From the sequence record PQ666541: a DNA stretch of 64,000 nucleotides; one strand, 5' to 3'. Origin of the DNA: Shigella phage sb3. Numbering within the stretch: position 1 is the first letter of the stretch; the number at the start of each line of letters is the position of its first letter. The notes under the pieces are model-generated. The model worked only from the letters and a program-made list of their open reading frames with translations. It made no database searches and was not told the origin of the DNA. The position numbers and the translations under genes are program-made. This document shows, in pieces, positions 11,653-11,910 of this stretch.

Positions 11653-11910
11653 TTATTTTAAATCTTCTAATCGTTTCTTCATCTTAGAACCGTTCTTAGC
11701 GATTTCTCCTGCATCTGAGCATAATGCTAAAAGTGCTTTAACTTTAGTTTGGTCTCCTTTAAAAGATGAAGGATCGACTGCAGCAGCAAGTTCTTTAATA
11801 CGAGAGAAAAGACGCTCAGCTTCAGCTAAAGCCATTCCAAGCTTTACTTCCATACCATGAGAAGATTCAGTAATAGTAGTTTTTGTAGCAAACTCTTTGA
11901 AAGTTTTCAT
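11653..11910 (-). CDS. internal-protein-like small protein (ipI position)
   Basis: 85 aa starting MKTFKEFATKTTITE; N-terminus resembles a capsid-targeting sequence with an ITE site; sits where T4 has ipI. Confidence 0.55.
   Translation of the reverse strand: MKTFKEFATKTTITESSHGMEVKLGMALAEAERLFSRIKELAAAVDPSSFKGDQTKVKALLALCSDAGEIAKNGSKMKKRLEDLK

Follow-up and report, generated by a model that had tools for sequence, protein, structure and literature searches.

An ip5 internal head protein gene at the ipI locus of Shigella phage sb3

Which protein occupies the slot that holds ipI in phage T4, and what might it do for the phage, is the question raised by a small ORF in the DNA of Shigella phage sb3 (sequence record PQ666541). 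We analyzed a stretch of 64,000 nucleotides, here called the window, whose first 25 kb share 97.3% identity with the Tequatrovirus Shigella phage pSs-1. An earlier reading made from the sequence alone, without database searches, had proposed an 85-aa internal-protein-like ORF at the ipI position. The ORF list contains this frame on the minus strand, a strand that the sequence-only reading had left unstated, as an ATG-initiated ORF of 85 codons plus a stop (the end coordinate in Table 1 includes the stop). Its translation begins MKTFKEFATKTTITESSHGMEV, ends EDLK, and reads in full MKTFKEFATKTTITESSHGMEVKLGMALAEAERLFSRIKELAAAVDPSSFKGDQTKVKALLALCSDAGEIAKNGSKMKKRLEDLK. The proposed position also holds, since the ORF lies between trna.4 and 57B, the order of the surrounding genes is the same in T4, and T4 carries ipI in that very slot.

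Table 1. Features of the ip5 locus and related genes in the window (coordinates are positions in the window)
Feature	Position	Strand	Basis or remark
ip5 CDS, precursor of internal head protein Ip5	11653..11910	-	ORF list; 100% identity to catalogued Ip5; PHROG 3499
Predicted leader/capsid-targeting propeptide, residues 1-15 (MKTFKEFATKTTITE), ends in I-T-E	11866..11910	-	Aligns with T4 IPI leader MKTFKEFTSTTTPVSTITE
Predicted mature Ip5*, 70 aa, about 7.5 kDa, pI 9.2	11656..11865	-	Computed properties
Shine-Dalgarno AGGA, 8 nt 5' of ip5 ATG	11919..11922	-	Read from sequence; kept in T4 and PP01
Upstream repeat copy	11930..11998	-	3' part overlaps end of 57B; 96% identical to T4 ipI upstream region
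Early promoter in upstream copy: TTTACA, 17-nt spacer, TG-TACTAT	11969-11964 (TTTACA), 11946-11941 (TACTAT)	-	Promoter scan
Stem-loop in upstream copy, 13 bp, overlaps promoter	11931-11960	-	Fold -17.4 kcal/mol, z -3.3
Downstream repeat copy	11600..11668	-	5' part overlaps last ip5 codons; 94% identity to the region 3' of T4 ipI
Promoter in downstream copy: TTTACA, TACTAT; serves trna.4	11639-11634 (TTTACA), 11616-11611 (TACTAT)	-	Promoter scan
Stem-loop in downstream copy	about 11603-11634	-	Fold -18.0 kcal/mol, z about -3
tRNA genes (n=10)	9767-10598	-	
Homologues of T4 trna.2, trna.3 and trna.4	10696-11582	-	
57B	11983-12438	-	Pfam Acb1, PF23474, E 2.6e-60
57A	12438-12680	-	Pfam GP57
Gene 1, dNMP kinase	12680-13405	-	
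Late-promoter consensus TATAAATA nearest to ip5 on its upstream side; lies in gene 1	13036..13043	-	Pattern search; ~1.1 kb upstream
Gene 21, prohead serine protease	41550..42188	+	Pfam Peptidase_S77, E 1.5e-111
Gene 22, scaffolding core protein	42219..43028	+	Pfam T4_CASP, E 1e-89

Some features of the neighborhood deserve mention in their own right. The tRNA cluster includes tRNA-Asn and tRNA-Tyr, and segB, the homing endonuclease gene that interrupts this cluster in T4, PP01, RB32 and PST, is missing from the cluster in the window. The gene directly upstream of ip5, 57B, is the anti-CBASS nuclease Acb1, still labelled 'RNA ligase' in RefSeq records. A 44-aa ORF on the plus strand (11857-11991) overlaps the ip5 start; because it overlies that start and the conserved promoter and repeat, it was dismissed as an antisense artefact.

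Identity of the ORF and its replacement of ipI

Judged by its identity to catalogued proteins, the 85-aa ORF is ip5 (Ip5/IpV), a gene that already has a name. The protein shows 100% identity to Ip5 of RB15 (GenBank Z35082.1, an entry of 1.4 kb that stems from work on T-even polymorphism in 1994), RB32, PST (where it is called ipV), pSs-1 and T6, 98.8% identity to that of T2, and 96% identity to those of PP01 and RB51. Nothing of substance separates it from Ip5 of RB15, RB32, RB51, RB70, T2, T6, PST or PP01, and its locus and flanking repeats are as in the known T-even phages with Ip5. PHROG 3499, 'internal head protein', matches the product over residues 1-85 (E 1.2e-49), and the RB32 annotation describes its gene as 'similar to RB15 T6 T2 RB70 Ip5, RB69ORF127c, replaces ipI'. 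A 1.2-kb query around ip5 matched 797 phage records, several of which label the ORF ip5, Ip5, ipV or 'internal head protein'. By tblastn, Ip5 is present at an identity of at least 80% in 268 phage records and as a homologue of 47-54% identity in 228 further ones, and about 280 records contain mature T4 IPI; the same method gave no match to Ip5 in plasmids. On the sequences searched, the Ip5 family is confined to T-even phages. Ip5 is said to have been described in T-even phages by Repoila et al. in 1994. Literature and GenBank annotations dating from 1994-2006 already cover the gene with its name, its place 'replacing ipI' and the idea of cassette shuffling, and the earlier reading was essentially right and is essentially the accepted one.

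The nucleotide differences among close relatives indicate strong constraint. Between the window and RB32, ESh17, PST or pSs-1 there are 6-8 differences in ip5, every one of them synonymous (pS 0.11-0.14, pN 0), and the three non-synonymous changes relative to PP01 all fall in the leader. Because all of the differences from the four relatives are synonymous, the mature protein is, by this substitution pattern, under strong purifying selection, and the ORF is a real gene and no chance ORF.

The sequence-only reading had also stated that the protein differs from T4 IPI, and alignment of the two supports this. T4 IPI has the leader MKTFKEFTSTTTPVSTITE followed by a mature region beginning ATLTSEV. 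BLASTP aligned only residues 1-22 of Ip5 with residues 1-26 of IPI (14 of 26 positions identical), the two proteins belong to different PHROGs (3499 for Ip5, 4363 for T4 IPI), and orthology over the mature region was not found. In the reverse direction, the best tblastn match of mature IPI anywhere in the 64-kb window had an E value of 2.5, that is, the window has no IPI-like mature sequence, and a phmmer search of Ip5 against the PDB did not recover the IPI* structure, 2JUB. Homology between Ip5 and IPI past the leader was rejected on the grounds of the leader-only alignment and the lack of a match to mature IPI in the window.

At the DNA level, the identity between the window and T4 is 96% upstream of the ATG and 94% downstream of the stop, whereas it is 63% in the leader (with a 12-nt indel) and 36% in the mature part. 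Because the flanks are so similar and the mature part is not, ip5 at the ipI locus is, on this comparison, a clean cassette replacement. What Ip5 shares with T4 IPI is the slot, flanks of 94-96% identity, a homologous leader (MKTFKEF...TITE) and gp21 site, and a similar size and pI. It differs in that its leader is four residues shorter, its mature region is unrelated in sequence, and it is predicted by modeling to be all-helical.

The two copies of a direct repeat of about 69 nt (D1), 83% identical to each other, bracket the gene. In both, the stem-loop overlaps the -10 region of the promoter, and the stem sequences differ between the copies, yet each pairs. The arrangement of TTTACA-N17-TACTAT plus an overlapping stem-loop on both sides of ip5 is that of the PeSL/IP-locus repeats (Repoila 1994; Arbiol 2010; Comeau 2014), and we detected no difference from them. 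For the PST/T4 pair, Comeau et al. (PMC4122927) give the PeSL consensus TTTACW-N17-TAYWAT, and they credit the first findings of a similar kind to work of 1994 on the T4 IP locus. A 43-bp direct repeat flanks Ip7 and Ip9 according to the RB32 annotation. Repeats of this kind might let phages exchange cassettes by recombination, so that IPI and Ip5 could alternate at one locus. The number of cassettes at the ipI locus varies as well, with one (ip5) in the window, PP01 and pSs-1, two (ip5-ip6) in T6 and PST, and three (ip7-ip9-ip5) in RB32. It is very probable that ip5 is one of roughly ten alternative internal-protein cassettes found at this locus in T-even phages.

Leader, processing and expression

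In T4, approximately the first 10 residues of IPIII form a capsid-targeting sequence that places proteins in the scaffolding core, the structure that takes in leader-bearing proteins; positions 4 and 7 of this sequence are important for targeting, L/I-X-E is the motif after which gp21 cuts, and the mature internal proteins are ejected together with the DNA (PMC9026906). Ip5 and T4 IPI share all of their first seven residues (MKTFKEF), and F4 and F7 of Ip5 are the positions critical for targeting in that study (PMC9026906). The I-T-E to which the earlier reading had drawn attention as a processing site is present at residues 13-15, followed by S16, and aligns with I17-T18-E19 of T4 IPI. Since the solved IPI* chain in PDB 2JUB, which covers IPI residues 20-95, begins at residue 20, gp21 cuts IPI after T-I-T-E19. 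In homologues of Ip5 with 48-54% identity the gp21 site is kept as L-N-E or L-A-E. Ip5 has, in keeping with the L/I-X-E rule (PMC9026906), a leader of the MKT(Y/F)x(E)F type that is aromatic at positions 4 and 7 and ends in such a site; it lies at one of the two polymorphic IP loci, with a flanking repeat of ~70 bp, and gp21 and gp22 are encoded in the same genome.

F4 and F7, the I-T-E, the presence of genes 21 and 22 in the window and the retention of these sites in homologues together make it probable, by analogy with T4 IPI and IPIII, that Ip5 is packaged, cut and injected. The 15-residue leader (MKTFKEF...ITE) would dock the precursor on the scaffolding core of the prohead, and gp21 would cleave it after Glu15. 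The basic mature protein of 70 residues (7.5 kDa, pI 9.2), probably a helical hairpin, would be retained in the head and would enter the next host with the injected DNA. A literature search on Ip5, virion proteomics and the ip4-10 names, run without the 1994 paper, found nothing relevant beyond PMC12373910 and no report of Ip5 virion proteomics.

The promoters raise the question of whether Ip5 is packaged at all. Directly upstream of ip5 the sole promoter is an early one of the sigma-70 type, and a pattern search found no late promoter adjoining the gene on its upstream side, as might be expected if Ip5 were an early cytoplasmic protein that had merely inherited its leader by recombination. 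We consider this highly unlikely, since the upstream region is 96% identical to that of T4 ipI, whose product is a proven virion protein (2JUB; PMC9026906). Moreover, the leader and the L/I-X-E site are kept in the homologues of 48-54% identity at another locus, which argues for selection on targeting and processing. As the nearest upstream late-promoter consensus lies in gene 1, late expression of a packaged Ip5 would depend on read-through, and this TATAAATA is a candidate source of late transcripts running over 57A, 57B and ip5. Given the near-identity of the upstream regions, ip5 is presumably expressed in the same way as ipI.

Structure, relatives and possible role of Ip5

The AlphaFold2 model of Ip5 has two long antiparallel helices (residues 17-44 and 54-84) that form a hairpin, with a mean pLDDT of 71 from a shallow alignment of five near-identical sequences. 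A Foldseek search of this model against the PDB and BFVD returned generic antiparallel helical hairpins only, such as the LSD1 tower and designed helical bundles; because these are generic and all have E values above 0.4, they are uninformative. Pfam and NCBIfam contained no family for Ip5 (sub-threshold DUF7890 at E 0.076), and phmmer against PDB sequences gave chance matches only (E > 0.7). A word-indexed search with Ip5 returned just five near-identical clusters. An exhaustive phmmer search with the 70-aa mature region, run against 1.84 billion representative proteins, found the Ip5 cluster and one RB69-type cluster only, so that remote relatives yield no hint of function.

The RB69-type relatives, the 'Ip5-like' proteins of the RB69ORF127c type (RB69-type phages and the Gaprivervirus VR25), are 48-54% identical to Ip5 across the mature region. 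They share with it the motifs KLG.AL.EAE and EIAKNGS.(M/L)K.RLE (VR25 and P0006 included), and like Ip5 they have a capsid-targeting leader with an L-N-E or L-A-E site. They differ in being 8-9 residues longer at the C terminus and in their location at the second IP locus, the one that lies between e and denV. This location of the divergent homologues suggests that the Ip5 fold has moved between the two IP loci. The Ip5 homologues of VR25 (2501-2782 of locus L006), NR1 (2501-2782 of locus L007) and P0006 overlap the end of e by 4-14 nt, and a divergent Ip5 homologue and IPI can co-occur in one genome, as in phage Phaginator.

What the mature protein might do in the host has to be considered against what is known of the T4 internal proteins. 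Ip1, Ip2 and Ip3 of T4 each inhibit one distinct GmrSD type IV restriction enzyme, with no cross-protection, and when ten ip genes were tested, none of ip4-10 reproducibly inhibited the active GmrSD variants (PMC12373910, Supplementary Fig. 9). T2 and T6 both carry Ip5. They are restricted by the GmrSD enzymes of ECOR17 and ECOR21 (PMC12373910) and by that of UTI89 (PMC4437046). Because T2 and T6 are restricted with Ip5 on board, and because ip4-10 were without reproducible inhibition, Ip5 appears to be no functional stand-in for Ip1-3 against those enzymes.

IPI* inhibits GmrSD of E. coli CT596, and these results bear directly on the notion that Ip5, though not homologous to IPI*, takes over its function and inhibits that same CT596-type type IV restriction enzyme. 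Against this, Bair et al. in 2007 reportedly found T2 and T6 to be restricted by CT596. The locus, leader, size class and basic charge that Ip5 has in common with IPI fit the notion, but the two mature sequences bear no relation to each other, each Ip is strictly specific for a subtype and ip4-10 did not reproducibly inhibit the GmrSD panel (PMC12373910), and phages with Ip5 are restricted by several GmrSD enzymes (PMC12373910, PMC4437046); we regard it as very improbable, and as the least probable of the explanations considered here.

The idea of the earlier reading, that a protein in place of IPI may target a different host defense, agrees with the standing hypothesis of the field (PMC12373910, PMC4122927). 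By analogy, Ip5 is most likely a specific inhibitor of a defense other than those identified, a reading to which we would give about an even chance. In the cell, mature Ip5 would block a host defense that attacks the incoming glucosyl-hmC DNA, which is the least certain step of the proposed scheme, and its target would differ from those of Ip1, Ip2 and Ip3. Candidate targets are a further GmrSD subtype or another class of system that senses glucosyl-hmC DNA or DNA entry. More specifically, and with a confidence that falls a little short of even, we suggest that mature Ip5, once injected, serves as a dedicated inhibitor of some defense outside the tested set and acts through a helical-hairpin surface unrelated to IPI*.

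The main alternative to a specific inhibitor is a non-specific basic head protein. Here Ip5 would fill the head or neutralize DNA charge as an interchangeable member of the core-protein set, with no specific host target. Mature Ip5 is indeed small and basic (pI 9.2) like IPI* (pI 9.0), the T4 internal proteins are non-essential and ip4-10 had no target among the GmrSD variants tested (PMC12373910), and the predicted structure is a simple hairpin without a recognizable functional fold. We nevertheless think this alternative unlikely, if by some way the strongest of those that compete with specific inhibition, since the mature sequence is invariant in many phages (pN 0 against pS of about 0.12), which is tighter than a charge carrier needs, and the three T4 Ips whose role is known each inhibit a specific enzyme (PMC12373910). 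The presence/absence polymorphism of the gene and the shuffling of cassettes also fit a gene involved in an arms race.

If Ip5 is indeed a specific inhibitor, identification of its target would reveal a widespread immunity determinant of E. coli and Shigella, because T6 and hundreds of Tequatrovirus phages that are candidates for therapy carry exactly this protein. As one of the seven named internal proteins ip4-10, ip5 would be a sensible choice for a directed search for new host defenses, being invariant in many phages including T6, lying beside acb1, and occupying the locus of a proven inhibitor, IPI. An anti-defense island that includes the acb1-ipI pair has been described (PMC9117128). 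As a marker, ip5 might also help to predict the host range of T-even phages used in therapy.

Other internal-protein-like and alt-like ORFs

The second IP locus of the window, adjoining denV and e, carries an Ip4-type internal protein gene (2698-3171, minus strand) with the leader MKTYKEFIAE followed by A, PHROG 3155 and Pfam DUF7412; its length is the same as that of PST ipIV. A scan of the window for leader patterns found no IPII- or IPIII-type ORF. With an Ip4-type gene at denV/e and no ORF of the IPII or IPIII type, the internal-protein set differs from that of T4 at both IP loci.

Two further minus-strand ORFs begin with leader-like sequences ending in L-x-E: 8899-9372 (157 aa), with MKSYAQFLNE followed by A, and 8210-8773 (187 aa), with MKTYAEFLTE followed by A. 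The two match PHROG 2280, 'unknown function', are both absent from T4 and PST, and are each preceded by a GC-rich hairpin and a T-run. Among the matches listed from 511 phage records, homologues of the 157-aa ORF are labelled only 'hypothetical protein'; a late promoter TATAAATA (9413-9420) lies 40 nt upstream of its start. Judging by their leaders, these two ORFs may encode further internal head proteins that have yet to be named, and they may hold more interest than ip5.

Near the other end of the window there is an alt-like ADP-ribosyltransferase gene of 685 aa (60180-62237, minus strand). It is followed by two shorter minus-strand ORFs (62241-62852 and 63396-63992) that share alt-like segments and may be alt paralogues or fragments, as are the alt.-x genes of T4.
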